Source: a virus. Taken from it: a stretch of 36,725 nucleotides of DNA. The stretch covers positions 1 to 36,725 of IMG/VR virus record IMGVR_UViG_3300032676_001346, one strand, 5' to 3'. The notes under the pieces are model-generated. The model worked only from the letters and a program-made list of their open reading frames with translations, ran no database searches and was not told the origin of the DNA. The translations under genes were made by a program, and so were the position numbers. Positions 5,991 through 36,724 of the stretch are shown here, piece by piece; within the stretch, counting starts at the first letter, position 1; every line of letters starts with the position of its first letter.

Positions 5991-6017
5991 TTCCCGACCG
6001 CGTTTCAATATTGGCCT

Positions 6018-9175: not shown

Positions 9176-9178
9176 CCT

Positions 9179-9412: not shown

Positions 9413-9413
9413 T

Positions 9414-11960: not shown

Positions 11961-11964
11961 CCTT

Positions 11965-11980: not shown

Positions 11981-11994
11981 TAATCTAGGGCGGT

Positions 11995-12512: not shown

Positions 12513-12550
12513 AAAGAGAATCGTCCTACTTCCGAAACCTATCCTGATCT

Positions 12551-12688: not shown

Positions 12689-12802
12689 AGCCCTAAATAT
12701 TCCACGCCGCACCGGCATAGTGGACTTCGCGGAAGTCCGGTTATGGCAGCAGCCTTGGTAGCCGCGTCAGCGATGTCCGACACACCAAATTACCGATAAT
12801 TT

Positions 12803-13729
12803 ATGACTACCGTTATTTACCATAGCGCCGATTTCGACGGCATATTCTGCCGCGAGATCGCACTCAAATTCCTTGGCGACAAGGATGTCAACTACATCGG
12901 GTGGAACTTTGGAGATCCTCCGTTGCAAATTCCCACCGGACCGATCTATGTTATGGACCTGCCGCTTGATGCGCCTTTTGGGTTCGACTATCACACGGCG
13001 GGCAAGGAGCGTGGCCCGCAACATCCCGCCGGTCTGGTTTGGATCGACCACCACGCGAGCAGCATCGCATCGCACCCGACCGACATCCCCGGCTACCGCA
13101 TTGACGGCGTGGCGGCGTGCCGGTTGGCGTGGGCGTGGTTTCAATCCTGCAAACAGGCAGGGAGGGACACCGCTTACGACCTTCCAACCAAGGAGCAGTT
13201 CGTCAACCGTCAAGTGCAAGAGCCGCTGGCCGTTCGCCTCGCTGGCGAATACGACGTGTGGGACAAGCGGGACCCAAACGCCGACCTGTTCCAATACGGG
13301 CTACGATCCCAGATGGTTGGACTGGATGGGCAGATCTCGCCGCGCATTTGGGGTGAACTGCTGCATCCGCGCTTAGTATCGGCGGCGATGGATATTTGCC
13401 AGACGGGGCGATCCAGCCGAACCTACGCCCAGATCGTTGACGCCAACAACATGCAGGCATCGTTCCTTACCAAGTGGGAGGGCCTGACGTTCCTGTGCCT
13501 GAACGGGCGCGGAAACAGCCTCACGTTCGCCAGTCTGGACGTGCCTGAGACCGGCCACGACGCACTGCTGATGTTCTACCTGAACGCCCATCGAGAGTGG
13601 GTGGTGAGTCTCTACCACGCCCGGCACCGGATCGACCTGGACTTGAGCAAGATCGCCGTGGCGCATGGCGGCGGGGGGCACTTGGGCGCTTGCGGTTTCA
13701 CCGTCAAAAACTTCCCATTCCCACTCTAA
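12803..13729 (+). CDS. DHH/DHHA1-family phosphoesterase (NrnA-like, 308 aa)
   Basis: Motif I is YHSADFDG (DxD). Motif II is YVMDLPLD. Motif III is VWIDHHASS (DHH). The C-terminal DHHA1 signature is AHGGGGHLGACGF (GGGH). Length is typical of stand-alone NrnA-type enzymes. Confidence 0.8.
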   Translation: MTTVIYHSADFDGIFCREIALKFLGDKDVNYIGWNFGDPPLQIPTGPIYVMDLPLDAPFGFDYHTAGKERGPQHPAGLVWIDHHASSIASHPTDIPGYRIDGVAACRLAWAWFQSCKQAGRDTAYDLPTKEQFVNRQVQEPLAVRLAGEYDVWDKRDPNADLFQYGLRSQMVGLDGQISPRIWGELLHPRLVSAAMDICQTGRSSRTYAQIVDANNMQASFLTKWEGLTFLCLNGRGNSLTFASLDVPETGHDALLMFYLNAHREWVVSLYHARHRIDLDLSKIAVAHGGGGHLGACGFTVKNFPFPL

Positions 13730-13732
13730 ACT

Positions 13733-15223: not shown

Positions 15224-15336
15224 GCGATCTTTAGTGTGATGGCTTGAGAGGCTGCCACGCGGCCCCATTACACTTAGTCGGAGCGTGTCCGCCCTGACGG
15301 TCGCCGGCGGCATCGAGAGCCAAAACATTATTGTTT

Positions 15337-23100: not shown

Positions 23101-23724
23101 AACGCCGCCGCCCTGGCCATCGCCAAACAGTCCGCGCTGGCGGCGCTGGTGTGCGGCGCGAACAACAACTCGGCGGTAGTCAGCGTGAACAACCTCGACC
23201 GCCTCGACGGCCCGTTCTCGCCCTACCCATCGCTGGCGGTGATTGCCGATCCCGGTTTCGTCATCGGCCCGACGCACGGCATCAAGGTGACGTTGAAGGG
23301 GTTCAATAACGTGTACGCCTCGGACGTGGGGATCGTGCTGATGGGGCCGGACGGCACTTGCGCGACCCTCATGGCCAACTGCTGGGGGTCTCGGAACGTG
23401 GCGGCGGTGGATGTCGTGGTCTGCGAGTACACTGGCATCCTGATGCCCTTCGGCTCCACGGCAAGCCCGACAATCCCGACACCGGGCCAGAAGTATCTCC
23501 CGACCGCCGGGTGGGCTGGCAATGTGAGCGTGTGGAACGCGGCATCGTGGGCGATGGCATCGGGCAAGACCGGCCCGACTGATCCTCTCCCGTGTGACCT
23601 TACGGTGTTCAACGGGAAGAACCCCGCCGGCAACTGGCAGCTATTCATGGCGCACTTCATCAACGAGCCGCCCGTGGGGGGATCTATATCCGGGTGGACA
23701 ATCGAGTTCACCGACACGCAGTAG
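20179..23724 (+). CDS. 1181-aa multidomain adhesin-like virion protein (Big_2 + vWA + jelly-roll + discoidin-like + P-domain)
   Basis: True start is taken as ATG 20179 (ATGA overlap with the upstream stop). The track's 19333 start is an out-of-frame overlap artefact. Big_2-like segment: SVQFKAFLQDTTGETDVTTDTVFSSSDPTIAVV...ISASYQTYTAFASITV. vWA segment: VAFLLLVDVTKSMS...GLTTFTG...DTTGFTS...VIISDGED. Jelly-roll segment: ELNFTAFQNWSVTGGRVDLLGNGF...YRLSVKLAG. Discoidin-like segment: PTDWTLQGSNDGSTWTLIDA. P-domain-like C-terminus: IKVTLKGFNNVYASDVGIVLMGPDGTCATLM...FNGKNPAGNWQLFMAHF...GGSISGWTIEF. Confidence 0.75.
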   Translation: MSINLGFITVAPCANTVPPPDSRCSDPAFALANPDICSAPQPTLVIKPGMAIACTLGSVQFKAFLQDTTGETDVTTDTVFSSSDPTIAVVGATSGNCTGVGSGEAQISASYQTYTAFASITVMAGSDCCSSRTVAFLLLVDVTKSMSASFDANYSTRLKFAAAAARQFITKVRRKDRVGLTTFTGVSSTFLAPIGTQAAALAAIPSIAQTQDTTGFTSAITQAVSDLNNSVSDQRVLVIISDGEDETSAESADAGVDPITTADNFKQAGGIVICLGVRASGTANGYALLSELATGGFFLNALPANETTILDYLTGLMGYMCAGDCTPEGDVIVGQGELNFTAFQNWSVTGGRVDLLGNGFFDVLPGNGLYVNLAGTSAPHDGVMTSKSAFPIVSGHDYRLSVKLAGNQVNPDSGAAVQVSVVGASSDLLQSIVLSDYTSGFHTYNYTFTATATDSAHIVIQQNDTGTPPDPQWGCLLKEVTLTDVTDDVTLFDDTFSGDNLVYVPPRCGTGTTYIQGYGYYTGSDCAYQDTCLSTPPPSQAADPNAIADIESSGGGTTGPSGPPATCGPTSQTYTATCPAGQTQLNPTPITAKASSTGNNIQAALNGLVWALPHAAFETDPTDQVENIGGDPGTLYTANLLIRGSVELKGYGAQPPNTPGGVTIAPIAGTGGIAALATLNTGNSFPNGELLATDPQNEYLLIISNPPQIIALNNSPSNTSLAGQNNVQVVRYPLAVQMYGGATVTLTARTIDGKDWGGINPVPRQTQDPPFILIQNPFFNSPTGGQWLQMDVLSVLGGTGAQTFPYKYTLTLAAAATAAYYSITNSTLAANSPTDWTLQGSNDGSTWTLIDARAGMSLSAAATYRFPIETPAAYIYYQVVFTATSNSLFPTLSGVSVYPAAVPAVGNGSASGVSPDCGTGAALAAAKLQANAALAGQCFPLFTAQETYTANCAVGSGSAVGSGTAQSYNSQAEANAAALAIAKQSALAALVCGANNNSAVVSVNNLDRLDGPFSPYPSLAVIADPGFVIGPTHGIKVTLKGFNNVYASDVGIVLMGPDGTCATLMANCWGSRNVAAVDVVVCEYTGILMPFGSTASPTIPTPGQKYLPTAGWAGNVSVWNAASWAMASGKTGPTDPLPCDLTVFNGKNPAGNWQLFMAHFINEPPVGGSISGWTIEFTDTQ

Positions 23725-25107: not shown

Positions 25108-25301
25108 AAACCATAAGCGGAGCAGTTTACGTCGGTAAATGTAAGAATTGTGGCAAGGTATGGGAGTCTCAGTTTCTTACCAGGATGCGGGACGGCCTAG
25201 GTGTGATGCCACCACATGTAATCAAAGCGGGATGTACCTGTGGATGCACCCCCCCCCCAGAACAGGTTGATTTGATCTACTTCCGAGAAATCGGTGGCTA
25301 A
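25104..25301 (+). CDS. 65-aa Cys-rich zinc-ribbon protein
   Basis: The ATG at 25104 overlaps the upstream stop (ATGA). Sequence MKTISGAVYVGKCKNCGKVWESQF...KAGCTCGCTPPP. The longer track ORF (from 24888) is an out-of-frame extension over the previous gene. Low GC. Confidence 0.45.
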   Translation: MKTISGAVYVGKCKNCGKVWESQFLTRMRDGLGVMPPHVIKAGCTCGCTPPPEQVDLIYFREIGG

Positions 25302-27229
25302 GGTTTGGCCAAGGGCTGAATTTCGAAAGCGACCATGTTGAAGCACACGTCCGCGTACGAGTTGTTCCCGGTCGGCACTATCCCCACTTCAAAGTAGAGC
25401 ATCCTCCCGGTCTGAAACACAGGGTAGTCGTTGGCTCTCGACGGCCTGAATCCCCCCGCCTTCAACTGCGCCATCGTCTGGGCGTTCGCACACGCCAGCG
25501 GTTTCGTCGAAATCTCCCCCCAGGCCACCGCGCACACGTTTGAACCCGCCCCGGCCATGTCACCCGGCCCGGTGAGCAGCGAGCCTTCCAGGGGGTCTTG
25601 GAGCGAGTAGGTGTTGCCGATCCTGACCGTCAGCCCGGCGGGGTGAGCCTCAGGTGTCACGTCCGCTTCAATGTGGGTAAGCCGGATGATCTTGTCCCTG
25701 TCCGTGAGGCCCGTGGGGATAAGCCCGCGCAGCACGGAGTTGTAGGGCATCAGTACCGGCACGGTCGCCAGGTCCAAGTCATCGGTGATGTCCCCGGTGA
25801 TGACGTAGGTCGACCGCACGAAGATCCCCCCGATCGTCTTGAGCGCGTAATCGTCCGTGGAGCACCCGACGAAAAGCTGGTCCTGATTGCACTGCTGGCC
25901 GGACACCGGGGTACGCCGGAAGTTGAACAGGACGGAGTAACCCATGTCGATCATGTCCGCCGTTTTCTGGTCAAGCTGTGCGACCATCGTGTAATTGTTG
26001 TGGCCGTATGGGTTGGTGATTGGGTCGGTGTGGGGCCACGACCACCACAATTCCCGCGAGTTGGGCACCCAGGCCCCCACCGGCCCGTTGCAAATGGTCT
26101 CGTCGATCTGGATGTTGGCCGATGATTTGTAGATGTAGCCGCTGGCCTTGTACAGCCAGTCCTCGGACTCGGGCACCAGCACATAGGGGTTCCAGTGGTA
26201 CGGCGCTTCCCGGCCGAGCCAGTAGAGGTCCAGCCCCGTGGAAATGAGCGACCGGGGATAGGCCAGGCAGCCGGTCTGCTGCATCGGCTCCGAGTAAATC
26301 TTCTGGAATGAGAACACGGCGGCGGGGTCTGCGGTGTTGCCGACGCTCATTCTCCAAATCGCCCGTTGGGTGAAGATGTACACGTTGCCGAGAAGCTGGA
26401 TCGCGGCGAGGATGGGGTCTCCGGCGTCGAGGTCCTGGTATCCAGCCACGGAGTTTTGAGACGTGTAGGGGTTGTAGGCCCCCCAGGCATCCGGTTGCGG
26501 GCTGTTCATATCCCCCCACCCGACGCGGGCAGGGAACGAACCCTGGTCGTCGTCGGTCAGGTTCATCAGCAAGATGAATCCCGAGAAGGAAATCACTACC
26601 TGGGCGGTGAGCAGGTTGCTCCCGATGGTCAGGTTGAGCATCCCGCCGGACACGAAGCTCCCGCTCGAACTGGACAGGCCGCCCGGCTGGTACGCTGGAA
26701 GCGGGTTGCCCGGAGTCCAGGTTGTCCCGCTGGCGTCCGCATAGACCGGGCGCTTCACCCCGTTGGTGAACACCACGATGTCTTGGGAGGCGGCAGCCCG
26801 CCAGTAAGCCCCGGTGGCGCCGTAGCCAGACATGACCGTTTCCCAGGTCCCCGCCGCGCCGGCAATGACGGTTCCGGGGTGCGGGCCGTCGTTGAGGATG
26901 AACAGGCTGTCCTGCGTCCCGGCGAACAGATAGCGCACGCCGTTCGACCGGGTGAACTCGAATCCGAAGTTGATCGGCTCGCGGGTGATGCCCTGGTGGT
27001 GGAGATCGAAGTTGGCCGGGTCCGCCAACAGGTCAGCGAACGTGTCGTTGATGGATGCGTGGCCCCCGCGACGGCAGAGCTTCCCGTCGCGGGACATGGA
27101 CATGTTGAGCTTGTGGCGGAAAGCCCCGGCGGCGATGTCGGCGGGGCGGGAGCGGCTGTCGAGGCCACCGCTGAGGGGATGGATCTGAACCTGTGAAAAC
27201 GGGTTGGCGCTGCTGGGTCTTTTAGCCAT
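25298..27229 (-). CDS. virion beta-propeller protein, T7 gp12 (tail tubular B / nozzle)-like candidate (643 aa)
   Basis: ATG start. The N-terminus QIHPLSGGLDSRSRPADI...HKLNMSMSRDGKLCRRGG parallels the gp12 N-terminal pattern LKGGISQQPDI...N.....GL.KRP (recalled from memory). Repeated blade-like segments are present (FAGTQDSLFILNDG, VVFTNGVKRPVY, GNVYIFTQRAIWRM, DLYWLGREAPYHW). The CDS is confident, the function is tentative. Confidence 0.55.
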   Translation of the reverse strand: MAKRPSSANPFSQVQIHPLSGGLDSRSRPADIAAGAFRHKLNMSMSRDGKLCRRGGHASINDTFADLLADPANFDLHHQGITREPINFGFEFTRSNGVRYLFAGTQDSLFILNDGPHPGTVIAGAAGTWETVMSGYGATGAYWRAAASQDIVVFTNGVKRPVYADASGTTWTPGNPLPAYQPGGLSSSSGSFVSGGMLNLTIGSNLLTAQVVISFSGFILLMNLTDDDQGSFPARVGWGDMNSPQPDAWGAYNPYTSQNSVAGYQDLDAGDPILAAIQLLGNVYIFTQRAIWRMSVGNTADPAAVFSFQKIYSEPMQQTGCLAYPRSLISTGLDLYWLGREAPYHWNPYVLVPESEDWLYKASGYIYKSSANIQIDETICNGPVGAWVPNSRELWWSWPHTDPITNPYGHNNYTMVAQLDQKTADMIDMGYSVLFNFRRTPVSGQQCNQDQLFVGCSTDDYALKTIGGIFVRSTYVITGDITDDLDLATVPVLMPYNSVLRGLIPTGLTDRDKIIRLTHIEADVTPEAHPAGLTVRIGNTYSLQDPLEGSLLTGPGDMAGAGSNVCAVAWGEISTKPLACANAQTMAQLKAGGFRPSRANDYPVFQTGRMLYFEVGIVPTGNNSYADVCFNMVAFEIQPLAKP

Positions 27230-27255: not shown

Positions 27256-27294
27256 AGAAAAGAAAGCCCCGGACGGGTAAGTTCCGTCCGGGGC
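27256..27294 (-). terminator. intrinsic terminator (minus strand) between the coiled-coil gene and the nozzle-like gene
   Basis: GCCCCGGACGG (27266-27276) pairs with CCGTCCGGGGC (27284-27294) as a perfect 11-bp GC-rich stem with a 7-nt loop. On the minus strand it is followed by TTTCTTTTCTC (complement of 27255-27265). Confidence 0.75.
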
Positions 27295-27320: not shown

Positions 27321-28163
27321 CTAAAACGGTGGGACGCCGCCCCACCGGAGCGCCGTCAGCGGATGGGGTGCCGGGTTGCCGTGATGCCCGATGGGGTCGC
27401 CGCCGCACGTGGTCGGCTCGGGGCGTGGGGGGCGGTTTTCTTTCACCGGCTGTTGGCAGTGGGCTTCATAGTCGGACACAGGTCCGGTATAGTTTGGTCC
27501 GAACAATCCGGGCATCGGAGGGTTTAGGGCATCCCTCGCTAACTGCATGGATCGGTTGTGGTGAACGTCGCCCAGGTTGTTCACCCGGATGTAGTCGCAG
27601 GTCTCGGAGTAAAGGAGTTGCAGTGCTTCCCGAAGCTTCCTGGAAATGTGGGCTTCCTCCCCGGCGGCCTTGATCCATGAATCTCGCTCGCCCCGGAGCT
27701 TGTTCATCTCGGCCAAGTGCTGCTGCTCCATCCTGATTTTGATGTCGAGTTGCTGCCGCAGAGTCTTGATGTCGGCCTGGAACTGGACGTTTGCCAGCCG
27801 GGTGGATTCCTCCCGTCGCCACACCGCCGCTTCCGAATTCGCCATCTCTGTGTTCGCGGACTCAAGCTCCCGGACCTTCCGGGAAAGGCGGTCGGACTCG
27901 GCCTTTTCTTTACCGAGTTTGATGGAAAGGTCGGCCACATTCCCGCAAAGGCCCCTGATGTTCGCTCGTAGGCCATTGGTATCGGCCTTCTCCCGTTGCT
28001 CCGGGGCGGGTTCTGTCTTACTGCAACAACACTCTCGTCCAAGGCGAGTGGGTGCGCTGTGCGCGTTAATCCATTCCTCCAGGACCGTCTTGCCGATCAC
28101 CCGCGCCAGCCGTTCCTCAAATCCGGGAGCCGCCGGGCCGGGGTCTTTTTGGGCTTTGTCCAT
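27321..28163 (-). CDS. coiled-coil protein (280 aa), function unknown
   Basis: ATG start. The central ~150 aa have heptad-like charged helices (KLGKEKAESDRLSRKVRELESANTEMANSEAAVWRREE...QQLDIKIRMEQQHLAEMNKLRGERD). Contains a CCC cluster (GRECCCSK) and a Pro-rich C-terminus. Confidence 0.6.
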   Translation of the reverse strand: MDKAQKDPGPAAPGFEERLARVIGKTVLEEWINAHSAPTRLGRECCCSKTEPAPEQREKADTNGLRANIRGLCGNVADLSIKLGKEKAESDRLSRKVRELESANTEMANSEAAVWRREESTRLANVQFQADIKTLRQQLDIKIRMEQQHLAEMNKLRGERDSWIKAAGEEAHISRKLREALQLLYSETCDYIRVNNLGDVHHNRSMQLARDALNPPMPGLFGPNYTGPVSDYEAHCQQPVKENRPPRPEPTTCGGDPIGHHGNPAPHPLTALRWGGVPPF

Positions 28164-28166
28164 AAT

Positions 28167-28508
28167 CTACACTTTCAATGGTGAGTCCGTCCACGTATAA
28201 ACGGCTTCCTCAGTTTGTGGTTGTGGTTTCTCAATCGAAGGCAATTCATCGAGCGGGCGGAACCGCTCCGGTTTGAAGCCGCGCTCCACGCCGGGGCGGC
28301 CAACGGCATCCGGGTTCCTCAATCCGACCAGCAGCACGCGGCCGGTGCCCACGCTCTGCCCGTTGCGCTGGTAAGGCTCCTGGCCGATGAGCAGGTCGCG
28401 GATGACGTAAACCTTCCCCTTGACCGGCAGAGTCGTGTACAGGGCCGCTATGGGCGGATCAAAGGTATCGTCAACGCATGCGACGTGCTGGCCAACGGTA
28501 AAGCTCAT
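28167..28508 (-). CDS. hypothetical protein (113 aa)
   Basis: The ATG at 28508 overlaps the GT2 stop (ATGA). Sequence MSFTVGQHVACVDDTFDPPIAALYTTLPVKGKVYVIRDLLIGQ... looks like a small beta-barrel. The longer track ORF (to 28841) is an out-of-frame extension over the GT2 gene. Confidence 0.5.
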   Translation of the reverse strand: MSFTVGQHVACVDDTFDPPIAALYTTLPVKGKVYVIRDLLIGQEPYQRNGQSVGTGRVLLVGLRNPDAVGRPGVERGFKPERFRPLDELPSIEKPQPQTEEAVYTWTDSPLKV

Positions 28509-29470
28509 AACGGCAACCCGAATTTCCCGCAGAACCACGCCATGTCCCGCTTGAACCGCTTCCGGTTCTCCGCCCTCGTGGTCTCGATGGTGTGAAGGTG
28601 GTTCCTCAACAGGATCATTAGGCGGTTCTGAATGTCGGCGGTGGTGTGCGCCCACAGCAGCCGCTCGTACTTCTCCGAAACGGTGTCCGGGAAAAGCAGG
28701 GTCTTGATCCCGAACAGCTTGTTCCACACCGGCCAGTGAGGATCGATCCCGAACTGCTGCCACATCGGCACCTTCCCGGAGTTGAACTTGTGCCCGATCC
28801 TCACGTTCCTCATGAACCGAACGTCGCCCCCGGATAGCCACGCGGACAGGGAAAGGCTTAGCTCGTCACAACCCCAAGCTCGGAGGTTCTTCAACGGCGC
28901 CAGTTCCAAATACCACAGCCTCGGCATGAAGTAGCAAGCGCCCATGATGGCCGGAAGTTCGCAGTCATCTACCTTCGGTTCCGTCCGGCCATTCTTGAGA
29001 TGCCACACCACTTCGAGCACCTGCATCGCCCCCCGGCCTCCGAGGTCCGGCCCGAACATGTTGATCGTGGCCCCTTCGTAAACGGCCTGGGGCTGGAGTG
29101 GGTCCATGTGCCGTTCGTCCAGCCCGAGGCAGGTAGCGCAATGGAGGGTGTGCGGACGGCCTTCAACGCGCCGCATGGCGTTCTCGTACCAGCCCTCGGT
29201 GAAGCGCATGTGGCTGTCCACAAAGAGCAGCACGTCGCTCGAGGCGTTTACCGCCCCGATGTGCCGCGATGCCCCCACGCCAATCCTGGCGCGGTTGGTG
29301 ACGAGGGTGATGCCGTCAAGGTGGGTGAGATACCTCTCAACCGAGGTATCGGAGAGGTCGTCCACCACGACGATTTCAGGATGGAACCCCGCCGTCGCCC
29401 GGATGCTCCTGACAGTGGCGATAAGCTCCTGCGTGTCGTTGTGGGTGGGGATGACGATGGAGAGGGTCAT
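28505..29470 (-). CDS. family-2-type (GT-A) glycosyltransferase (321 aa)
   Basis: MTLSIVIPTHNDTQELIATVRSI...EIVVVDDLSD...LLFVDSHMRF has the classic GT2 N-terminal signature, an acidic DD(x)D motif and a D-x-H motif, as in GalNAc-transferase-like GT-A enzymes. Confidence 0.8.
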   Translation of the reverse strand: MTLSIVIPTHNDTQELIATVRSIRATAGFHPEIVVVDDLSDTSVERYLTHLDGITLVTNRARIGVGASRHIGAVNASSDVLLFVDSHMRFTEGWYENAMRRVEGRPHTLHCATCLGLDERHMDPLQPQAVYEGATINMFGPDLGGRGAMQVLEVVWHLKNGRTEPKVDDCELPAIMGACYFMPRLWYLELAPLKNLRAWGCDELSLSLSAWLSGGDVRFMRNVRIGHKFNSGKVPMWQQFGIDPHWPVWNKLFGIKTLLFPDTVSEKYERLLWAHTTADIQNRLMILLRNHLHTIETTRAENRKRFKRDMAWFCGKFGLPL

Positions 29471-29757
29471 TTCGTTTCGTTCTGTTTTGATGCCATGTAA
29501 TCCGCTGTCTTCGGGTCAACGGCGGCGATTTCATCAAGGGTTATCCCCAAGTCAATCAGAAGACGATCCCCGCACTGCCTGAATATGGAAGGATCGAAAG
29601 ACCGTCTAAGGTCGTTTTGCTGAATCAGCCGGCCTAGCCCACGTAGAAAGTTCACGCAAGCTTTTACTTGGATGATCTTGGCCTCTTTGATTCGGGCGTC
29701 CGTCTCCTTCGGGGTAAGCCTGGACTTGAATTCTTCTTCTGTCAGTAGGTATTTCAT
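29467..29757 (-). CDS. hypothetical protein (96 aa), lower GC
   Basis: ATG start. ATGA overlaps at both ends (29754-57 and 29467-70). Helical, charged composition. Confidence 0.5.
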   Translation of the reverse strand: MKYLLTEEEFKSRLTPKETDARIKEAKIIQVKACVNFLRGLGRLIQQNDLRRSFDPSIFRQCGDRLLIDLGITLDEIAAVDPKTADYMASKQNETK

Positions 29758-29981
29758 TGGACTTGGAATGGGGATACGGGCGTAGTGGCTGCGCTGAACG
29801 TAGCCAGCATATTCAACCTGTCCATGCTAACCTCACCTGACAAGATAGCCGCGCAAACGAGATGCCGAATGGCTCCTTCAAGTTCGTCGGCGCGGAGCAT
29901 GGGTTTACCTTCAAACCTCTTACTGTGCAGTATCTCGATTGCGGCAGCGTCGTGGGCCTCGATGAGTTCTTTATCGGTCAT
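29754..29981 (-). CDS. hypothetical protein (75 aa)
   Basis: ATG start, ATGA overlap with the downstream gene, helical composition. Confidence 0.5.
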   Translation of the reverse strand: MTDKELIEAHDAAAIEILHSKRFEGKPMLRADELEGAIRHLVCAAILSGEVSMDRLNMLATFSAATTPVSPFQVQ

Positions 29982-30314
29982 AGTTCAAAGCTCTCCAGCC
30001 CGCGCAATATATCCCCCAAAGGCCAGGTCACCAGTCAGATAGTGGGCCTTACTAGAATGGGGTTTAGAAAGATCAGTTCGCGGGCTGGAAATCATAAAAT
30101 CAGTTGCAGCCGAAAGCCCAACAGAAGGCTTTCCCTTTGAATCCCACTTGGTAGATCATGCTATGGAATGGCATATACCGATCCTCCAATCCAGATACCT
30201 GCATGATCATCATGGACGGTAGGACTTTGACTTAGGACTCCCCCTCCTTCATGGGGATTACCGGAGTGCCTTCCGCCTTGGCTTCATCGAATACCTTTTG
30301 CGTGATGGGGTCCA

Positions 30315-31094
30315 TTACGCCGTCCTCCCCTTGGGCCTCACGTCGGCCAGCGCCCCGCCCCATCCGTTAAGTTCGGCGGTCCACTGCCCGTGCCATCCGA
30401 ACTGCCCGGAGTAGGGAAGATTCTCGCAACTGAACCGGGCGGCGATTTTCTCCGGCGCGAACTTGATCCCGTGTTCCTTTTCGAGCCACGATCGCCACGT
30501 CCGGCATGGGTGCATGTCCGAGGAAATCTGTCCGGCTTTGACCATCGGGTCGTCCTTGAAGTGCGCCAGGGCGTCGGCGGTGCCACAGCAATACTTCACG
30601 CTGCGGAGTGAGAACCCGCCGTTGCCTACGTTGTTGGTCTCCCCGTCGCACGCCGGCCAGCCCGGTTCGTGGTGCGGCGGCCAAGGAGATCCGATGTAGT
30701 CGTAGCTCATCCAGATGTCGCCCCAGATGTGGCCGGTAACGCCGTCCCGTTCCTGCCACGCCCACGGGTTGGCTATTCCCGAGTCCCATTCCATGAACAG
30801 GACGTGGCTGGTCTTGACGCCGTTGCCATGGCGCCCCGGCTCAACCAGCGCGGCGAACTCGTAATCCACCGGCAGGGGGTAATGGTCCGCACGGGGGCAC
30901 TTCACCTTCCGGTCACTCTCGGTGTGATGCACGGTGCGGATGTTGGACGCGCCGATGCGCCAACGCTGCGTGTCGGTCAGGAGGACCGCCTCCGCGAACT
31001 CAACGTGACGCATGGCGTCCCGCATGGCCCGCAGCGTCCGGTCAGGGTGAACTGTGTCTATGGCGAACAGGGTTACTTGGGGCAGATGGATCAT
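30315..31094 (-). CDS. DUF5672-like putative glycosyltransferase (~259 aa)
   Basis: VTLFAIDTVHPDRTL..., YIGSPWPP... and VGNGGFSLRSVKY match my recollection of DUF5672 (IGAPW / GNGGFSLR). The ATG at 31094 forms an ATGA overlap with the upstream stop. An alternative ATG lies at 31118. Confidence 0.6.
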   Translation of the reverse strand: MIHLPQVTLFAIDTVHPDRTLRAMRDAMRHVEFAEAVLLTDTQRWRIGASNIRTVHHTESDRKVKCPRADHYPLPVDYEFAALVEPGRHGNGVKTSHVLFMEWDSGIANPWAWQERDGVTGHIWGDIWMSYDYIGSPWPPHHEPGWPACDGETNNVGNGGFSLRSVKYCCGTADALAHFKDDPMVKAGQISSDMHPCRTWRSWLEKEHGIKFAPEKIAARFSCENLPYSGQFGWHGQWTAELNGWGGALADVRPKGRTA

Positions 31095-32413
31095 TTTCTC
31101 TCGCACCTTTCTTTCCATGCATCCAGGGCCACGTCGAGGGAGTCTTTATCCTTCAACCCGTGAATCCAAGCGGCATCGTGTTTGATGATGGCATCCCGTA
31201 GCGGTTCGTAATCCCGCTTCGTGATGGTGTTTTGGGCGTAGGTGCCAGGCAGGTTCCCCGAGATCGGGACGCCAGAAATGTGCGCCAGCCCGCTCAGGAA
31301 CCTGTCGTCGAACCCGCCCTCCAGAATCTCTGGGTAGCGGGCATGGGCCGCCAGCATGGCCTTGGCGCTCGCCCGGTCGAACACCAGCGGGGGAACGGCG
31401 TAGCGCGGCGAGATGAAGCGCAACGGCTCCGTATTCTGCGCCAGGCAACCCCATAGGCCCGACGCGGGCGAAATCGTTTGGTGCAGGCAGATCGAATCGT
31501 ACTCGAACCAGACCGCGTGAGCATACTGCGAGGCGCAGAACATCTTGAGGATGGCGACGATCTTCTGTGCCTTCCGGGCGCCCGCGTAGCTGTCCAGCCC
31601 CAGATGGAACGTCTGATGATCACCGGGCAGAGCCAAGGGGTGATCCGTGGGGGAGATCATCCAGATTGGAAACCCGTGGTTGCGCCAGAAAGACATGTGC
31701 CGTTCCGTGGTTTCCTTCGCCTCGGCGTGGGTAAGGACAATAGCCACCATGCCTTCGGGCGCAATGCGCTCTTGGGGGCAGGCGTAATTCGTGGCTCGCT
31801 CGATGCGGTGAGCCTCGACCGCTTTCCACCGATGCTCATACAGCCATTTATTTTTTACCAACCCGTTGGGGAAGTGGACGCATTGGCTGTGAAGGTGTCC
31901 GGCGTGGGTGACGAGCTTTGAAAGAGCAATCGGCGGCCCTTTGTGCCACGCCTGAAACACCATCAAGTCGGATGTGTGCTGCCTGCCATCGATCAGCGTG
32001 GCGCACTGATTCCCGAGCTTGAAGGCATCCAGGAACCCGGCCAGCCCCTCCCGTGTCGCGTAGATGCAGCACGGGGACGCAGGGCTTTCCAGGCAAACCA
32101 CATTGCCCGTGGGCACGTCCTCCGGTCGCAGGGAGAAGTTGATCACGTCGTAGTCAGTGAACACGCCAGGGGCAACCTGCTGGAACGCCAGCCACCGAAG
32201 CCAGCAGGACATTTCAAACCGGCGGTCGTTGACCGTGGGGAGTGCCTTGCACGTCGCCTCAATTTCGGTAAACCGGGGGTTCGCCCTAGCGTCCGCTTCG
32301 GTCATTACCCTTGGAGTGAACCCGTTGGCCTCCCACGACTCGCGCCAGCATTCAATCAGCCGGTCGGGGTAGTTTGGGGCCTTCGGGTTATCGAAGTAGC
32401 AAAAGACGTTCAT
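31091..32413 (-). CDS. two-domain putative glycosyltransferase (GT32/Gly_transf_sug-like DXD domain + second GT-A-like half)
   Basis: N-terminal half: MNVFCYFDNPKAP...CWRESWEANGF...SCWLRWLAFQQVAPGVFTDYDVIN, which follows the capsule-type DXD pattern. C-terminal half: VAIVLTHAEAKE...AVWFEYDSICL. The ATG at 32413 is in an ATGA overlap. The track start at 32449 is GTG. Confidence 0.6.
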   Translation of the reverse strand: MNVFCYFDNPKAPNYPDRLIECWRESWEANGFTPRVMTEADARANPRFTEIEATCKALPTVNDRRFEMSCWLRWLAFQQVAPGVFTDYDVINFSLRPEDVPTGNVVCLESPASPCCIYATREGLAGFLDAFKLGNQCATLIDGRQHTSDLMVFQAWHKGPPIALSKLVTHAGHLHSQCVHFPNGLVKNKWLYEHRWKAVEAHRIERATNYACPQERIAPEGMVAIVLTHAEAKETTERHMSFWRNHGFPIWMISPTDHPLALPGDHQTFHLGLDSYAGARKAQKIVAILKMFCASQYAHAVWFEYDSICLHQTISPASGLWGCLAQNTEPLRFISPRYAVPPLVFDRASAKAMLAAHARYPEILEGGFDDRFLSGLAHISGVPISGNLPGTYAQNTITKRDYEPLRDAIIKHDAAWIHGLKDKDSLDVALDAWKERCERK

Positions 32414-33108
32414 CGTATGCGTTTCCCCACGACGCAGAACAGTTTGCACGCGCCGTGCTTCGGGCTTGTGGCGGTGAACATGAATGACTTTGGAACGGTG
32501 GCTCTGAACCCCAAAGAAACCAGCATGTCACTGATGGCGTCAGGGGGGAGATACCACCATACGAGGTAGTCGTTCCCTTTGGTCATCAGAGGACGGAAGG
32601 ACGTGTACATTCCCGCCCGCAGCACTTCCGTCACCACAACGGTATCGGCCACGCGGCACGCCTCGCGCAATGCCCCGAACGGGTTTTCCAGGTGCAGCAG
32701 CACGCTCCCGAGGATGGCGATATCGACCCCGCCGTGGGCGGGGGGATGGAAGGGAAGGTCATAGATGTCCCCATAGATCGGAACGGCAGACGACCCTAGC
32801 CGCTCATGGCAGTAGCGGTATCCGTTCTTCATCCTATCAATATCCAGGAGGGACTGATCCCAGCATGGCAGCAGGTTCAACGGGTGATCCGGCGACTGGT
32901 CAAACGACGTGACAGCCTCGGCCCCCATCTTCTCCGCGTAGAAGCTCAGCGCCCCGGTCGCAGTGCCGATGTCGATCACGCGCTTCCTCTTGAAGTCCAC
33001 GCCCCCCGTGTATTCTTTCAGCACCGGGCGCAAGTCCCAATCCCCTTCCACGGTCTCGCCGCCGGGGAGGTCCATCGTGTGGTAAAAGTAGCAGTCTTGT
33101 TTTTCCAT
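32410..33108 (-). CDS. class I SAM-dependent methyltransferase (232 aa)
   Basis: Motif I is RVIDIGTATGALSFYAEKMGA. The acidic loop is VTSFDQS. The motif III/IV region is VDIAILGSVLLHLENP. The N-terminal FYHTMDLPGGETVEGDWDLR resembles CmoB/DUF1698-type methyltransferases. Confidence 0.8.
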   Translation of the reverse strand: MEKQDCYFYHTMDLPGGETVEGDWDLRPVLKEYTGGVDFKRKRVIDIGTATGALSFYAEKMGAEAVTSFDQSPDHPLNLLPCWDQSLLDIDRMKNGYRYCHERLGSSAVPIYGDIYDLPFHPPAHGGVDIAILGSVLLHLENPFGALREACRVADTVVVTEVLRAGMYTSFRPLMTKGNDYLVWWYLPPDAISDMLVSLGFRATVPKSFMFTATSPKHGACKLFCVVGKRIR

Positions 33109-33110
33109 AA

Positions 33111-34700
33111 TTATACCAGTCCAGTTATCGGATCGATGGCCTTAATCACCTTTGAAGGATTGTCCAATACCTCAGAGTATGTCAGCCGCGTAGTGCAGTT
33201 GAACCGCGGCATGGAGCCCTCCCACCCATCCCGAACGAGGGCCACTAGCGGGGCTTTGCACGCCTGTGCCAGATGCAGGGTCAGGGTGTCAATCGAGACG
33301 ATCACTTGCGCGGCGTCCATGATGCCGAGCACGTCGTAGGGGTGTAGGCAATGGAACTGGCCGATGTCAACCACATGGAAATCGGGGAACGCATCCACAA
33401 TCTTTTTGAGGATGTCCCGCCCCTGGGGGAGTGGCGCCGAGACCGCCGCGGTCAGGTTGGTGACGATCTTCGGGCGTGGGTCAATGCTAAAGGCCCGCTC
33501 CCGCATCACCCGTTCCTTGTCCCAGTCCCGGTTGTCGAACACCAGCGGCCATTTGAAATCGTGGAAGTGAGCCAGGAACCCGGCCATCCGCCAGGATTCT
33601 TCATTGAACGTGGCACACCGCCGGTCCTGGGTATAGTTCCAACCCCATATCTGGCAGTTGATGACGTTGGCGAACTTGCTGCGGGCTTCCAGCAAGGCGT
33701 CGTTGATCTCCCCGAAGCTCCGCCGCATCAGCCACGGTTTGACGTAGGACACTCCATCCAGGATGTCCCGGAACTCTCGGGAGATGGCCAGCCGGGGCTT
33801 TACCCCGGTCGCCAGGAAGTCCTTGTAGATGAACGGCAGGGCGTTCACGATGTCGCCGTTTCGGCCCAGGATGACGTAGCACCGATCCGACAGGGTCGGG
33901 GCATCCGCCCTGCTCTTGGCCAGGAACTCGGCCGCCATGCGCTCGTAATCGTGCTTGAGCGCGGGCTTGATGAGCACGTTGCCCACCGGCTCGCTTCCGG
34001 CCCGGATGCGGTTCTCAAGGTCTGCCCCGATACGGTCGTGGATCTTCACCCCGCCGGGCACGTCGTCGCCGCTTCCGCTGGCGTGGAAACTACCCTGTGA
34101 CCAGCAATAGACGTACTGCGGCTTCGCCGGGGTGATCTTCTTCCCGGTGAACCGCTCCTGTAGGGCGGAAACGAACCCCCGGTCCTCGCCGCAGGTCAGC
34201 GCCGGGTATCCGCCCACAGCCTGCCACGACTCCTTTGTGAAGGCGAACTGGTGCATTGCCCCCGGCGAGATGGCCTTGATGGTGTCGCGCTCCATGTAGA
34301 ACTGCGAGTTTATCAGTATCCAGGCGCAATCGGGGTTCTGCGCGAAGGCGTCGGCGTAGAGGCGGAGGTCCCCGCTGAGAACGAAGTCGTCATCGTCCAC
34401 GACCCTGATCACCCGACCGTCGCACGCAGCCACGCCGATGTTTCGGGCCTCGCCCAAGCAGGCTGGGCGGCGGTCCAGGTTCACGACCTTGACGTTTGGG
34501 AAGCCGAGGTTATCCGAAAAAACCGTCAACCTCTGTTGCGGGCAGGTATTGAGGATCACGATCTGGTAAGGCACCGGGCAGTCTTGGTGATTCAGTCCGT
34601 ACAGCGCGTTCTTGAGGAAGGCCGTTCGACCGTAAGTGACCGTGAGGGTTGAAATGGGGAAGGATGTCACGGTTTCTTTTCTTTCATTGCGGCATCCCAA
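33111..34700 (-). CDS. bifunctional glycosyltransferase: GT2-like N-domain fused to GT9 (heptosyltransferase)-like C-domain
   Basis: N-domain: FPISTLTVTYGRTAFLKNAL...VIRVVDDDDF...GEDRGF. C-domain: CYVILGRNGDIVNALPFIYKDF...VDIGQFH...VIVSIDTLTLHLAQACKAPLVALV, matching the GT9 pattern lGDvv.alP ... DsG..HLAaA.g.P. The track start at 34700 is TTG. GTG at 34670 (VTSFPIST...) is the more natural GT2 N-terminus. Confidence 0.75.
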   Translation of the reverse strand: MGCRNERKETVTSFPISTLTVTYGRTAFLKNALYGLNHQDCPVPYQIVILNTCPQQRLTVFSDNLGFPNVKVVNLDRRPACLGEARNIGVAACDGRVIRVVDDDDFVLSGDLRLYADAFAQNPDCAWILINSQFYMERDTIKAISPGAMHQFAFTKESWQAVGGYPALTCGEDRGFVSALQERFTGKKITPAKPQYVYCWSQGSFHASGSGDDVPGGVKIHDRIGADLENRIRAGSEPVGNVLIKPALKHDYERMAAEFLAKSRADAPTLSDRCYVILGRNGDIVNALPFIYKDFLATGVKPRLAISREFRDILDGVSYVKPWLMRRSFGEINDALLEARSKFANVINCQIWGWNYTQDRRCATFNEESWRMAGFLAHFHDFKWPLVFDNRDWDKERVMRERAFSIDPRPKIVTNLTAAVSAPLPQGRDILKKIVDAFPDFHVVDIGQFHCLHPYDVLGIMDAAQVIVSIDTLTLHLAQACKAPLVALVRDGWEGSMPRFNCTTRLTYSEVLDNPSKVIKAIDPITGLV

Positions 34701-35011
34701 CCGTCTTCGCGAACGGAACAGGAAATTGTTTTTGAGAGGGCCGGGCGCACGCGGATCGTTGGTGGTTCACCCTATACAGCCGGTCGCTGTTACCGGAATA
34801 TGCTTCCGTTGATCGGTTACATGGCCTAACCGCGCCTCCTCTCAAGATGGTTGCGGAGCCGAGGAGTCTAACCTCGTTCAATGACAGTTTATGAGGCTGC
34901 CTCAGATACGACCTGCCGCCCGCATTAAAACGCACCGTCTTAGATCCCCGACAAGGGACCGCGCAAACCCTGAGATATATTGAGAACTGGTTCACGGACG
35001 GTGTAAATTGG

Positions 35012-35413
35012 TTATTTCTTCTGGTACGTGGCCGCGATCGCTTCCGCCTGTTGCCGCGTCTCACCGAAGCCGAGCAGGTGGAAGATGGCGTCCAGCCTGG
35101 ATTGGCAGCGGAGGCCGGTATAAGCGCCCGACGGGGTGTACTCAGGGTCGAATCCGTGTCGCTTTTCCCACCGGCCAACCTGGACGCGGAGGAATGGGCA
35201 TCGAGCGTCGGGACGCTCCCTCACGAACACGCCGCCGAGGGTTTGCGTCGTCGAGGCGTTCTGCGGGGCCTGTCCCAGTATGGGGACTTGCACTTGCCGC
35301 AGCGTTTCGGTTTGGGGTTCTTCGACGTGAACCACCGTTTGCACCGGCTGCACTGGTGTTCCGTCACCCGGATGATTCTGGAATTCTTGCTCATTCACAA
35401 GAGCACTATACAC
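35012..35413 (-). CDS. hypothetical protein (133 aa, GTG start, no internal Met)
   Basis: Co-oriented between the ATP-grasp gene and the 310-nt gap. The C-terminal half looks globular (CPFLRVQVGRWEKRHGFDPEYTPSGAYTGLRCQSRLDAIFHLLGFGETRQQAEAIA). The two plus-strand ORFs over it look antisense. Confidence 0.4.
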   Translation of the reverse strand: MYSALVNEQEFQNHPGDGTPVQPVQTVVHVEEPQTETLRQVQVPILGQAPQNASTTQTLGGVFVRERPDARCPFLRVQVGRWEKRHGFDPEYTPSGAYTGLRCQSRLDAIFHLLGFGETRQQAEAIAATYQKK

Positions 35414-35461
35414 CGTCCGTGCATGTTGGCAATAGTTTTTTTCAAGTTTTTTTTCGGGGCG

Positions 35462-36724
35462 TCAAACTGCCGCCGGTTCGACGTTCATCTTTCGGTCTGC
35501 CATCGACTCGAATTCGTCCAGTGCCTTTTCCAGCGACTCGACCTTGACCGTGATGTTCCCCTTGAGTTGGTCGGCCATTTCCTTGCAGCCTTCAATGGCT
35601 TTGTCTGCGGTGTCCCCAGTGCAGATCACGCTACCCATTTCATCAAAAGCATTCATCTGAGGAACCACGTAATCTTCTTCCCCTTTCCGCATCCCGAAGT
35701 AGAGGTTCACCGAGTCTCGGACTTCGGGCGGGATGGAAATGCCGGACCAATGATCTTCATCTCCGGCGTTATAGATCATGGCCTGGGCCACATATTTGGC
35801 CGACGGTTCCGGCTCGACCAGTTCGCCATGAGCTCCGGCCCAAACGACTTCCGGCAGGTTTCCCCAAATCGCCAACTGCGATTCACCAGAGGGGGAACCT
35901 TGGCGGCAGCAGGGATCGATCAGATACGGCGTTCCATCCTTTGCCAGCCGGATTTCCGTGGACCAGAAGTTGGCGTAGCCGTACCCGGCCAGAACCGCTG
36001 CCAAAGCGTTGTTGGTCCTTGTGATTTCCTTGGGCATCTTCGCGTATTCCTGAACCACGCCCACGTATCCGCAGTCCTTAATTTCAACACCGTTGATCGC
36101 CATTTTGGGGAACCGCCCGACGAACAATCCATCGTAACCAACCTCGATGTCGGACTCGATGGGGTTCTCGACGATGAACTCCTGATCTTCCGCCAGCGGG
36201 CCGAGCTTGAACTCCAGTTCGTCCAGGCGGGGCTTCGATAGCCAGTAGGTTTCGTGGTGCCAGCTTTCCATCAGGCCGCGAAGGAAGCTGATTTTGATGT
36301 ACCTATCGTCCACCTTTTGAAGCAGTTCCCGGAGCGCGGGAACGCCGGCAACGACTTGGTATTTGCCCACTGGCAGGCCAACTGACTTGATGACTTCCTT
36401 GGAGAATATTCGGTAAAGCTCGATGTCCTCACCCTTTCCGCTACCCCAGACTTTGTAGCCCCTTCCCCGAAGCCACTTTTGCATGTCCCCGCCAAGCACG
36501 TCCGGGCACGCGACGATGTCCACCGAGTCGATCACGTCGAACATGTCCTTCACGACCTCGATACCATCGTAGCCCTTGCCTACCGTGATTTCGTGAAAAG
36601 ACGGGCGCCCCCGCCGCCAGTCGTTGTAGTAGAGCACGCGACCGAACCCCTCGGCCATTTTCAGAGCGAAGCTGAGGAAAAGGCCGTGGTCAAGGACGAG
36701 GACGCTCTTGGACTTGAGGTTCAT
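35462..36724 (-). CDS. ATP-grasp-fold ligase (PurD/carboxylate-amine ligase-like, 420 aa)
   Basis: ATG at 36724. N-terminal Rossmann-like KSVLVLDHGLFLSFALKMAEGFGRVLYY. Central segment YIKISFLRG....HHETY...EFIVE. C-terminal STEIRLAKDGTPYLIDPCCRQGSP resembles the Mg/ATP-binding E-x-N/R strand region of ATP-grasp enzymes. Fold call by pattern only. Confidence 0.55.
   Translation of the reverse strand: MNLKSKSVLVLDHGLFLSFALKMAEGFGRVLYYNDWRRGRPSFHEITVGKGYDGIEVVKDMFDVIDSVDIVACPDVLGGDMQKWLRGRGYKVWGSGKGEDIELYRIFSKEVIKSVGLPVGKYQVVAGVPALRELLQKVDDRYIKISFLRGLMESWHHETYWLSKPRLDELEFKLGPLAEDQEFIVENPIESDIEVGYDGLFVGRFPKMAINGVEIKDCGYVGVVQEYAKMPKEITRTNNALAAVLAGYGYANFWSTEIRLAKDGTPYLIDPCCRQGSPSGESQLAIWGNLPEVVWAGAHGELVEPEPSAKYVAQAMIYNAGDEDHWSGISIPPEVRDSVNLYFGMRKGEEDYVVPQMNAFDEMGSVICTGDTADKAIEGCKEMADQLKGNITVKVESLEKALDEFESMADRKMNVEPAAV

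Follow-up and report, generated by a model that had tools for sequence, protein, structure and literature searches.

For glycosyltransferases carried by phages, the usual default annotation is DNA protection or O-antigen conversion. Giant viruses of eukaryotes use glycosyltransferases on their own particles: the chlorovirus PBCV-1, with its A064R-type multidomain glycosyltransferase and methyltransferase, and the mimiviruses, with their fibril clusters, put virus-specific glycans on capsid or fibril proteins by means of soluble enzymes of their own, without the host secretory machinery. Among phages, the O-glycans of mycobacteriophage capsid and tail-tube proteins are described as products of phage glycosyltransferases (Freeman et al. 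2023, Cell Host Microbe 31:1216, as cited in PMC12619734 and PMC13313380). Our literature search found no experimentally shown glycosylation of phage particles outside the actinobacteriophages, and no paper linking a phage to an enzyme resembling the polypeptide N-acetylgalactosaminyltransferases (ppGalNAc-Ts). Here we analyse an island of glycosyltransferase genes of about 7 kb (27321-34670, minus strand) in a 36,725-nucleotide (nt) stretch of viral DNA, the whole of which we call the window (IMG/VR record IMGVR_UViG_3300032676_001346, positions 1-36,725). On the grounds of homology and gene order, we propose with moderate confidence that the island would serve the O-glycosylation of the phage's own virion proteins in the cytoplasm, before or during assembly.

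One end of the island encodes a soluble glycosyltransferase of 321 amino acids (aa), at 28505-29470. A preliminary description of the window, made from its letters alone, had called it a GT2 enzyme, which holds (Glycos_transf_2, E = 3.5e-16 by Pfam), and its likeness to ppGalNAc-Ts is far more specific. Searched alone against the PDB with phmmer, the protein matched ppGalNAc-Ts in 15 of 15 cases (E from 7e-17 to 4e-10, residues 2-231), and the profile of its five-member family (alignment A11) again placed ppGalNAc-Ts in the top 15 positions (1e-24 to 5e-19, residues 3-278). The next match of this profile was a 563-aa glycosyltransferase chain (8uhv, 3.6e-15, mainly residues 165-261), and GT2 enzymes followed only from 1.6e-9 (a chondroitin synthase), over the N-terminal 100 residues only. 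D85, H87 and H227 are invariant in A11 and align with the manganese ligands of GT27, that is, with the D-x-H (LDCHCE) and GHVF motifs of GalNAc-T4, -T2 and -T9. A WGxDE...GG segment (residues 199-215, WGCDELSLSLSAWLSGG) aligns with the Gal/GalNAc-T motif WGGENxExSFRxWxCGG; its sequence is not canonical, PF02709 being matched in one of the five members (E = 0.023), and G200, D202, E203, L206, S207, G214 and G215 are invariant. According to these alignments, the enzyme is specifically GT27-like over the whole GT-A catalytic domain, above other GT2-like families; its C-terminal 90 residues or so are unrelated to GT27. Full-length relatives are few: among the 80 best metagenome loci about 8 qualify, the others sharing only the generic N-terminal 100 residues. 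The enzyme is conserved in the relatives at 32-49% identity. A GtrB-like reading of this enzyme was rejected, its match to PHROG 841 being limited to the N-terminal 86 residues and membrane helices being absent.

The first glycosyltransferase gene of the island encodes a fusion protein. Two in-frame starts are available, TTG at 34700 (529 aa) and GTG at 34670 (519 aa), and the second, which the public assemblies call, is more likely. The N-terminal domain (residues 1-240, 33951-34670) is a GT2 domain of the GT-A, inverting type: PF00535 is matched at 41.9 bits against a cut-off of 23.3 (E = 1.3e-10), as it is in all 22 family members; D92, D94 and G161-E162-D163 are invariant in the family alignment (A1), D93 and D95 are present in at least 90% of it, and profile matches to chondroitin and heparosan synthases in the PDB reach 1e-10. 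The C-terminal domain (residues ~262-519, 33111-33887) scores below the Pfam gathering threshold for PF01075 (13.8 bits against 22, E ~0.037), while 20 of the 22 homologues match this family, Glyco_transf_9, at E <= 1 (best 1.6e-7). We therefore call the domain GT9-like and not a demonstrated member of GT9. It carries the motifs LGRxGDIxNxLP and DTxTLHLA; in the stretch IDTLTLHLAQA, D461 and H466 are invariant and T462 is kept in at least 90%, and the stretch aligns, at a weak E of 0.06-0.15, with the nucleotide-sugar motif of WaaC/WaaF (250-289). TIGR02193 is matched weakly (E = 0.055), and the domain is presumably heptosyltransferase-like, with a GT-B fold. The fusion of a GT2-like to a GT9-like domain that had been read from 33111-34700 thus stands, its second half at the level of the family.

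Between these two enzymes the island carries further transferases. The 232-aa product of 32410-33108 was correctly recognized as a class I methyltransferase dependent on S-adenosylmethionine (SAM): it exceeds the gathering score of Methyltransf_11 (26.2 bits against 21.2) and has SAM motif I (VIDIGTATG, residues 44-52). It matches the small-molecule or protein-type families Methyltransf_11/23/31 and not DNA_methylase, it resembles PrmA and the PRMTs at SAM motif I alone, and relatives of the phage hold Methyltransf_11/24 or TylF genes at the same position. It may act in sugar O-methylation. The 259-aa product of 30315-31094 belongs, as had been suspected, to DUF5672 (PF18922, 55.3 bits against a cut-off of 24.4, E = 8.2e-15) and is a probable GT-A-like transferase. 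About 30 full-length homologues of the GT2/GT9-like fusion are known to us, many lengthened by a third domain to 750-790 aa, and in L021 (open reading frame [ORF] 3780-6056; P0014 and P0023 share the architecture) this third domain is DUF5672, which ties the DUF5672 protein to the same pathway.

The 440-aa protein encoded between the methyltransferase and DUF5672 genes had been described as a GT32/DXD-like domain followed by a second GT-A-like half. Neither the protein nor its two modules gave a Pfam, NCBIfam or PDB sequence match. Homologues were gathered by exhaustive HMMER search, word-indexed searches having returned only two or three proteins, and an AlphaFold model built on a 47-sequence alignment (A9, with fewer N-only rows) reached a mean predicted local distance difference test score (pLDDT) of 94.2; a single-sequence run (pLDDT 34.6) was discarded. 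Foldseek returned 112 PDB matches at E <= 1e-3, and GT-A enzymes predominate among the first 50 of those listed: LARGE1 and LH3 match both halves, and glycogenin, GT6, GfsA and CpsY match single halves. The N-module (residues 1-205, 31799-32413) finds its best structural matches in GT8, GT6 and LARGE1 (also glycogenin and LH3) and has an invariant D87-x-D89 (DYDVIN) and an RWLA motif (alignment A3). The C-module (residues 222-440, 31091-31750) has E87-x-D89 (FEYDS) at the same relative position, with PPW, EEGxxDR and HGxK motifs (alignment A4), and a weak profile match to DUF5672 (hhalign E = 2.9e-4, probability 41%). As modelled, both halves are GT-A domains with DXD-type motifs, so this part of the earlier description is supported; the GT32 label is not, since PF04488 (Gly_transf_sug) was matched neither by the window protein nor by 30 homologues, even at E <= 1. 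Among viral models, the matches of the 440-aa model are multidomain glycosyltransferases, from uncultured phages as well as from giant viruses, DUF5672 proteins, those of giant viruses included, and UniProt entries M1IF74 and M1HIA0, which we take to be chlorovirus proteins. Each module is about 210 aa long and is found by itself or joined to the other in either order (N-C or C-N). With 1,414 cluster representatives at E <= 1e-3 (640 at 1e-10), the modules define, by these searches, two large GT-A families outside Pfam and NCBIfam; no member was found in GenBank phage records. After Pfam, family profiles and AlphaFold/Foldseek, the count of six glycosyltransferase-type domains plus one SAM methyltransferase is unchanged.

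All these enzymes are soluble: on the Kyte-Doolittle scale, none of them contains a 19-residue stretch that scores 1.6 or higher. As soluble transferases they can act solely on a cytoplasmic or inner-leaflet acceptor. Pfam searches of the roughly 30 ORFs of the window found no Wzx, Wzy, ABC transporter, priming transferase or sugar-nucleotide enzyme, in agreement with the preliminary description, and its preference for a cytoplasmic acceptor is upheld by this lack of membrane or export components. It had listed virion proteins, lipid A-core and DNA as candidate acceptors; the first gains most from the present analysis, through the ppGalNAc-T-like enzyme and its linkage to a virion gene, and the choice among the three is still a matter of inference.

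The island recurs in five relatives of the phage (L007/L008, L009, L019, L020 and a contig from ENA) whose structural proteins are 40-53% identical to those of the window. It lies in each between VWA/DUF5977 tail-type genes and a virion gene of about 610 aa, on the same strand; in the window, the block formed by the island and the virion gene runs in the opposite direction to the tail genes. In tblastn comparisons, conservation is limited to three elements, the GT2/GT9-like fusion (38-48%), the GT27-like gene (32-44%) and the homologue of a 643-aa virion protein (33-38%), the fusion being about as conserved as the structural protein p705 (40-53%) and the VWA protein (43-50%). The fusion and the GT27-like gene form the conserved ends of the island. 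Its interior changes from phage to phage, with genes for GT34, GT32, GT47, Glyco_transf_7C, DUF5672, Methyltransf_11/24, TylF, sulfotransferase-like and SPASM proteins, and in L023 also an NAD-dependent sugar epimerase/dehydratase. Such a hypervariable middle is as expected of an exposed glycan. By this comparison, an uncultured lineage of freshwater phages keeps the island as a constant core part of its structural region. A search for synteny had been suggested as a check and found homologous islands at the same place in divergent relatives; the same result shows that islands of this kind, which had been thought uncommon, are universal in the lineage.

The virion gene that follows the island (25298-27229, minus strand) encodes a 643-aa protein, taken for nozzle-like in the preliminary description, whose sole match is PHROG 3287, 'virion structural protein' (E = 1.1e-16); PDB sequence searches with this protein and with the 705-aa protein p705 were uninformative. 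Homologues 29-40% identical lie directly after the GT27-like gene in L007, L019, L021, L022, L023, L044 and L046. Ten loci were taken as informative, with at least 37% identity and with downstream sequence; in nine of them (the window, L007/8, L019, L021, L022, L023, the metagenome contigs L044 and L046, and ENA ERZ1426851) a homologue of the 643-aa gene comes next after the GT27-like gene, L024 being the exception. The spacing between the two genes is 33-60 nt in most relatives, and in L022 the pair stands after the terminase gene, with the remaining island not adjacent. This conserved adjacency within a clade is suggestive, not proof. The modules also turn up in an unrelated phage, L013 (GTDB CAZCJF010000054.1, labelled as an Ignavibacteriaceae metagenome-assembled genome), which is not cellular: along 520-15794 it carries a terminase, a P22-type portal (E = 3e-67), a four-gene cassette, a Phage_capsid_3 capsid and two SU10-adaptor genes. 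The cassette consists of a GT9-like plus GT-A protein, a Methyltransf_24 O-methyltransferase, a homologue of the 440-aa C-module and a Stealth_CR2-like gene, and its place between the portal and capsid genes puts it inside the head module of that phage. We count this apparent convergence on the same modules beside virion genes in favour of a virion acceptor.

According to the scenario that we propose, the block would be a late-expressed, wholly cytoplasmic glycan assembly line and a core trait of the lineage. First, the GT27-like enzyme would add the first sugar, probably a HexNAc, to Ser/Thr of a structural protein. The prime candidate acceptor is the 643-aa protein encoded just downstream, and the Ser/Thr-rich proteins with DUF5977 modules, including the C-terminal extension of p705, could be acceptors instead. 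Second, the bifunctional GT2 plus GT9-like enzyme would make a conserved inner glycan. Third, strain-specific enzymes, here the 440-aa GT-A modules, the DUF5672 protein and the methyltransferase, would finish and cap it, and the outer glycan would as a result differ between related phages. More broadly, and more tentatively, we speculate that this may be a mucin-type-like protein O-glycosylation of the bacterial cytoplasm, in which a GT27-like initiator and the bifunctional GT2/GT9 enzyme make a core on virion proteins and a rapidly changing set of GT-A modules and O-methyl-, sulfo- and phospho-transferases gives each strain its own particle glycan, and on which phages of the L013 type have converged.

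Several points weigh against the glycosylation of virion proteins. GT9-type domains classically act on lipid A-core. The likeness to GT27 is, as far as the alignments go, that of a shared catalytic scaffold and not of the acceptor, and the 321-aa enzyme has no Pfam match to a lectin domain and no hydrophobic segment (maximum score over 19 residues 0.91 on the Kyte-Doolittle scale). We sought a conserved Ser/Thr-rich tract in the 643-aa protein and found none, an SSSSGS loop being an insertion unique to this phage. L024, L009 and L025 have no virion partner gene nearby, adjacency within one clade may merely mirror conserved gene order, and in the window a strong terminator-like hairpin parts the enzymes from the virion gene. 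No island enzyme is detectably homologous by tblastn to the glycosyltransferases of GenBank phages, mycobacteriophages included; in particular the fusion, the GT27-like enzyme, the 440-aa protein and the GT9-like protein of L013 gave no match in 50,697 GenBank phage records (E <= 1e-3 to 1e-5). Finally, regions rich in glycosyltransferases in pelagimyophages have been read as modifying the host O-chain (PMC7029224).

This last interpretation leads to the alternative that survives best, although we consider it unlikely: the enzymes could remodel the host envelope by acting on lipid A-core, a lipid-linked O-unit or another glycoconjugate at the inner face of the membrane, with export by host flippases, and the surface so changed during infection or lysogeny would provide superinfection exclusion or receptor masking. 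The family of the GT9-like domain is indeed that of the heptosyltransferases of the LPS core, and the N-terminal 86 residues of the 321-aa enzyme match, weakly, a PHROG annotated as 'GtrB-like O-antigen conversion' (PHROG 841, E = 2.9e-5); the best-characterised relatives of that enzyme, however, use polypeptides and not lipids, and neither a transmembrane segment in any of the enzymes nor a GtrA/GtrC, flippase or priming enzyme in the window was found. The hypervariable regions that were interpreted in this way in pelagimyophages also lie beside tail genes (PMC7029224), and small helix-turn-helix (HTH) genes precede the island in L007 and L020, as they would in an independently regulated moron. 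Against a moron, the island has been kept by vertical descent as a core part of the structural module and is not a sporadic insertion, L013 has the same modules between its portal and capsid genes, and neither an integrase nor a repressor was seen in the 36.7-kb window. As a separate observation, the small HTH genes are of the Xre type (HTH_3 / HTH_31), stand between the tail genes and the island (L007:8499-8732, L020:8074-8325) and have no counterpart that we could find in the window.

It is improbable, in our view, that the line serves some other cytoplasmic acceptor, either host proteins, in a form of take-over, or a glycoconjugate, free or secreted, or else a small molecule. All the enzymes are soluble and the virion acceptor is a candidate, the ATP-grasp-like 420-aa protein encoded next to the island could serve a small-molecule pathway, and the similarity of the methyltransferase is to protein methyltransferases only, at the SAM motif; location and conservation nevertheless tie the island to virion genes. 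To our knowledge, moreover, the glycosylations that serve in host take-over use single enzymes and single sugars and not a multi-step hypervariable line.

The probability is slimmer still that the island builds an oligosaccharide on 5-hydroxymethyl-pyrimidines of the phage DNA and so blocks restriction and CRISPR. Phage GT-A and GT-B enzymes (GT8-like, WaaJ-like and heptose-transferring) do put mono- to trisaccharides on 5-hydroxymethylcytosine (5hmC), and some of the clusters concerned lie near structural genes (bioRxiv 10.1101/2023.12.21.572611). In the present case, GT8 enzymes are among the best PDB matches of the 440-aa model, the island contains a methyltransferase gene, and some 20 kb of the 69-kb genome lies outside the sequence examined. 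Intact pathways of DNA hypermodification are usually clustered (Pyle et al., bioRxiv 10.1101/2023.12.21.572611), which counts against a DNA acceptor here: Pfam found no ThyS-like hydroxymethylase, TET/JBP (5mYOX) protein or C5-cytosine methyltransferase in the window or, in the five relatives, within 10 kb on each side of the island. The methyltransferase belongs to Methyltransf_11/23/31 and not to DNA_methylase, the PDB matches of the GT27-like enzyme include no DNA-glycosyltransferase, and six transferase domains, with the sulfotransferase-, Stealth- and TylF-type tailoring of the relatives, exceed the trisaccharides known on DNA.

The last alternative, that a host polysaccharide locus was misjoined to phage DNA or that the ORFs are non-coding shadows, to which DNA of about 60% G+C rich in long shadow ORFs might lend itself, is effectively refuted already by the identical arrangement of the block in several independent assemblies and samples, the even base composition at its junctions, the homologous islands in the same position in divergent relatives, and the fact that relatives of the fusion in reference genomes (185,579 genomes searched) are limited to its C-terminal domain, at about 30% identity, the one such contig examined, L013, being a phage. 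The block and the phage genes on both its flanks were assembled identically in JGI 3300032722, 3300031759, 3300032677 and 3300032605 and in Logan SRR11285887 and SRR11286067, and L002, L015 and L004-L006, assembled independently, show the same junctions with phage genes. Since separate assemblies of several JGI and SRA samples yielded this gene order flanked by phage genes, the misassembly of a host LPS-core locus, which the preliminary description had kept in view, is excluded, and the block is phage-borne as that description stated. Long antisense shadow ORFs of 780 and 687 aa do exist in the window, at 9630-11972 (minus) opposite the gene at 9414-11960 (plus) and at 15328-17391 (minus) opposite the gene at 15331-17448 (plus); since they mirror real genes, ORF length alone is no evidence of coding here.

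The phage itself comes from freshwater metagenomes. Its window encodes a large terminase (TerL; PHROG 2, 1.8e-16) as well as DUF5977 and VWA tail-type proteins, and no tRNAs were found. Searches with the window and with TerL (megablast and tblastn) found no nucleotide or protein relatives among the same GenBank phage records. The longest contig carrying identical proteins gives a genome of at least 69 kb, which is therefore not the small genome that had been supposed. A 308-aa protein encoded amid head and structural genes (12803-13729, plus strand) matches PHROG 4771, 'DHH phosphoesterase' (E = 3e-12), and no Pfam family; its homologue adjoins the virion-protein gene in L022. In the conserved structural protein p705 (15331-17448, plus strand), the C-terminal 120 residues or so (~585-705) form an extension that is absent from its relatives (579-626 aa) and that resembles, by eye, a DUF5977 module (...PAGEF.S...IS.ADANA.A...). 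This module is repeated in a 666-aa protein (18182-20182) and is also found near the C-terminus of the VWA protein (20179-23724); the modules are rich in Ser, Thr and Gly, with stretches such as TTTTS and GTTSGTAT.

On the minus strand, the genes of the island and its surroundings follow one another in the order 420 aa, 133 aa, a 341-nt leader, 519/529 aa, 232 aa, 440 aa, 259 aa, a mini-ORF with a 250-nt gap, and then 75, 96, 321, 113, 280 and 643 aa. A sigma-70-like promoter match (TTGCCA-16-TATAGT, 35405-35432, 10 of 12 consensus positions) stands just upstream of the 133-aa gene and is a possible start of the transcription unit; such sites are no more frequent in the region than in shuffled sequence. 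The 133-aa protein (35012-35413), an ORF called in public assemblies, has no Pfam or NCBIfam match. The non-coding leader that separates it from the first glycosyltransferase gene (34671-35011) folds no more stably than shuffled sequences (z = -0.66) and matches no Rfam family. A six-codon mini-ORF (MKEKKP, 34667-34687, minus strand) ends in a GTGA overlap with the GTG start of that first gene.

The five ATGA overlaps that had been reported, at 32410-13, 31091-94, 29754-57, 29467-70 and 28505-08, are all present in the sequence. The TAATG at 30315 is present too, but it opens only a 27-codon mini-ORF (30232-30315) and not the next gene, and a non-coding gap of 250 nt (29982-30231) follows, so that the genes form two coupled sub-blocks, divided at 29982-30314, and not the single chain that had been described. 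Stop-start overlaps are common elsewhere in the window, for example at 12231-34 and 20179-82, and are thus not special in themselves. Beyond the break come a 75-aa protein (29754-29981; weak homologue at L019 17208-17423, 35% identity, E = 9e-10 by tblastn), a 96-aa protein (29467-29757) and, after the GT27-like gene and in ATGA overlap with it, a 113-aa protein without a Pfam or NCBIfam family (28167-28508). The last gene of the unit encodes a 280-aa coiled-coil protein (27321-28163) with coiled-coil Pfam matches only, of which residues 180-213 are 71% identical to the product of an 84-aa gene upstream of the island in L007. Between it and the 643-aa virion gene stands an intrinsic-terminator-like hairpin (27266-27294, minus strand), with an 11-bp stem of which 10 pairs are G-C, in the form GCCCCGGACGG-aacttac-CCGTCCGGGGC, then TTTCTTTTCT; this canonical signal qualifies the statement that the operon runs on into the virion gene. 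On the opposite strand, a 92-aa ORF without a family match, which public gene calls set in the 250-nt gap (29862-30140, plus; L002 2627-2905 and L015 6586-6864), may be spurious.

The 420-aa protein encoded upstream of the island (35462-36724, minus strand) resembles ATP-grasp enzymes weakly, in the region shared with PurD and L-amino-acid ligases (TIGR00877, E = 0.0074; PurD and L-amino-acid ligase in the PDB, E = 0.3-0.8), and this faint signal is confined to residues 247-308. Homologues lie beside the islands of L007/L008 (35% identity) and in the IMG/VR contig L040 (31%), in the latter next to homologues of the 440-aa C-module (41%) and of the DUF5672 protein (49%). Judging from these neighbours, it may be an accessory enzyme of the pathway. 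Directly upstream of its gene, on the same strand and beyond the right end of the window, lies a giant gene of more than 3,919 codons (L014:1-9958) with ResIII, AAA_34 and Helicase_C_4 domains, as in helicases of the Strawberry-notch type; a gene of more than 2,715 codons occupies a similar position in the ENA relative.

The island offers a testable case in an uncultured lineage that is unlike the actinobacteriophages, and it adds an enzyme whose nearest characterised relatives start protein O-glycosylation; its design of conserved ends and a variable middle looks like antigenic variation of the particle surface. If the broader, mucin-type-like reading is true, this would be the first virion glycosylation outside the actinobacteriophages and the first relative of the eukaryotic ppGalNAc-Ts in a prokaryotic virus, and the hypervariable, glycosyltransferase-rich regions of aquatic phages would have functions in the particle coat rather than in host LPS. 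Should virions be the target, glycans would be a general variable layer in the interactions of phages with hosts, grazers and the environment (adsorption, aggregation, protease resistance), many 'LPS-like' auxiliary genes of aquatic viromes would need re-annotation, and the two 210-aa GT-A module families, for which there are more than 1,400 cluster representatives, would be placed in a functional setting. A further use of the soluble GT27-like enzyme could be as a tool for cytoplasmic O-glycosylation in bacteria.

Among the described systems, the nearest in function are the capsid and fibril glycosylation of giant viruses and the glycosylation of mycobacteriophages of the Che8, Corndog and Myrna type. 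As presented in the papers that cite the original work, these mycobacteriophages have soluble glycosyltransferases, often together with a methyltransferase, that are thought to O-glycosylate their own capsid and tail proteins in the cytoplasm. Their glycans are displayed at the particle surface and, according to the same papers, are attached to the C-terminal tails of capsid and tail-tube subunits; here the glycan is predicted from genes, and we found no such conserved tail. Their hosts are Actinobacteria, whereas the present DNA, with its 60% G+C, comes from freshwater metagenomes; the tblastn searches of GenBank phage records detected no homology to them, and the line described here is far larger, with six glycosyltransferase domains, conserved ends and a hypervariable middle. 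The giant viruses resemble the island in that the 440-aa model matches their multidomain glycosyltransferases and DUF5672 proteins; they are eukaryotic viruses, however, and the similarity is at the level of the fold only (about 10% identity, template modelling scores of 0.2-0.5). Having no homology to the mycobacteriophage enzymes and only fold-level similarity to those of giant viruses, the island is a member of neither system.

Phages offer two further comparisons in which the acceptor is, or has been read as, the host envelope. The pelagimyophages, like the lineage described here, are uncultured aquatic phages with clusters of glycosyltransferase and sugar-modifying genes in a variable structural region (Zaragoza-Solas et al. 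2020, PMC7029224). Theirs are T4-like myophages, with mainly GT8 enzymes and a host O-chain reading made without experiments (PMC7029224), whereas in the present island the enzymes at the two ends (the GT2/GT9-like fusion and the GT27-like enzyme) and the partner virion gene are constant. The GtrABC modules share with it a phage-borne GT2 enzyme, by the weak PHROG 841 match of the first 86 residues; they differ by their GtrA flippase, their GtrC, the transmembrane helices of their GT2 enzyme and an adjoining integrase or attachment site, none of which accompanies the 321-aa enzyme. DNA-hypermodification clusters likewise employ serial GT-A and GT-B enzymes related to those of LPS synthesis and sometimes lie near structural genes (bioRxiv 10.1101/2023.12.21.572611), and their defining 5mYOX/TET, ThyS-like and C5-methyltransferase partners were not found in the window or in the neighbourhoods of the five relatives.

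A comparison at the sequence level can be made with the ppGalNAc-Ts of GT27, which start mucin-type O-glycosylation. The catalytic domain of the 321-aa enzyme can be aligned with theirs over some 230-275 residues, including the DxH plus His site and, in a non-canonical form, the WGxDE...GG counterpart; it differs by having neither a ricin-type lectin domain nor a signal anchor, and it would work in the cytoplasm and not in the Golgi. Set beside all these systems, the island belongs to a known kind, the synthesis of glycans by phage enzymes whose genes are linked to those of the virion, and what is new in it is a defined island architecture together with a candidate initiator.

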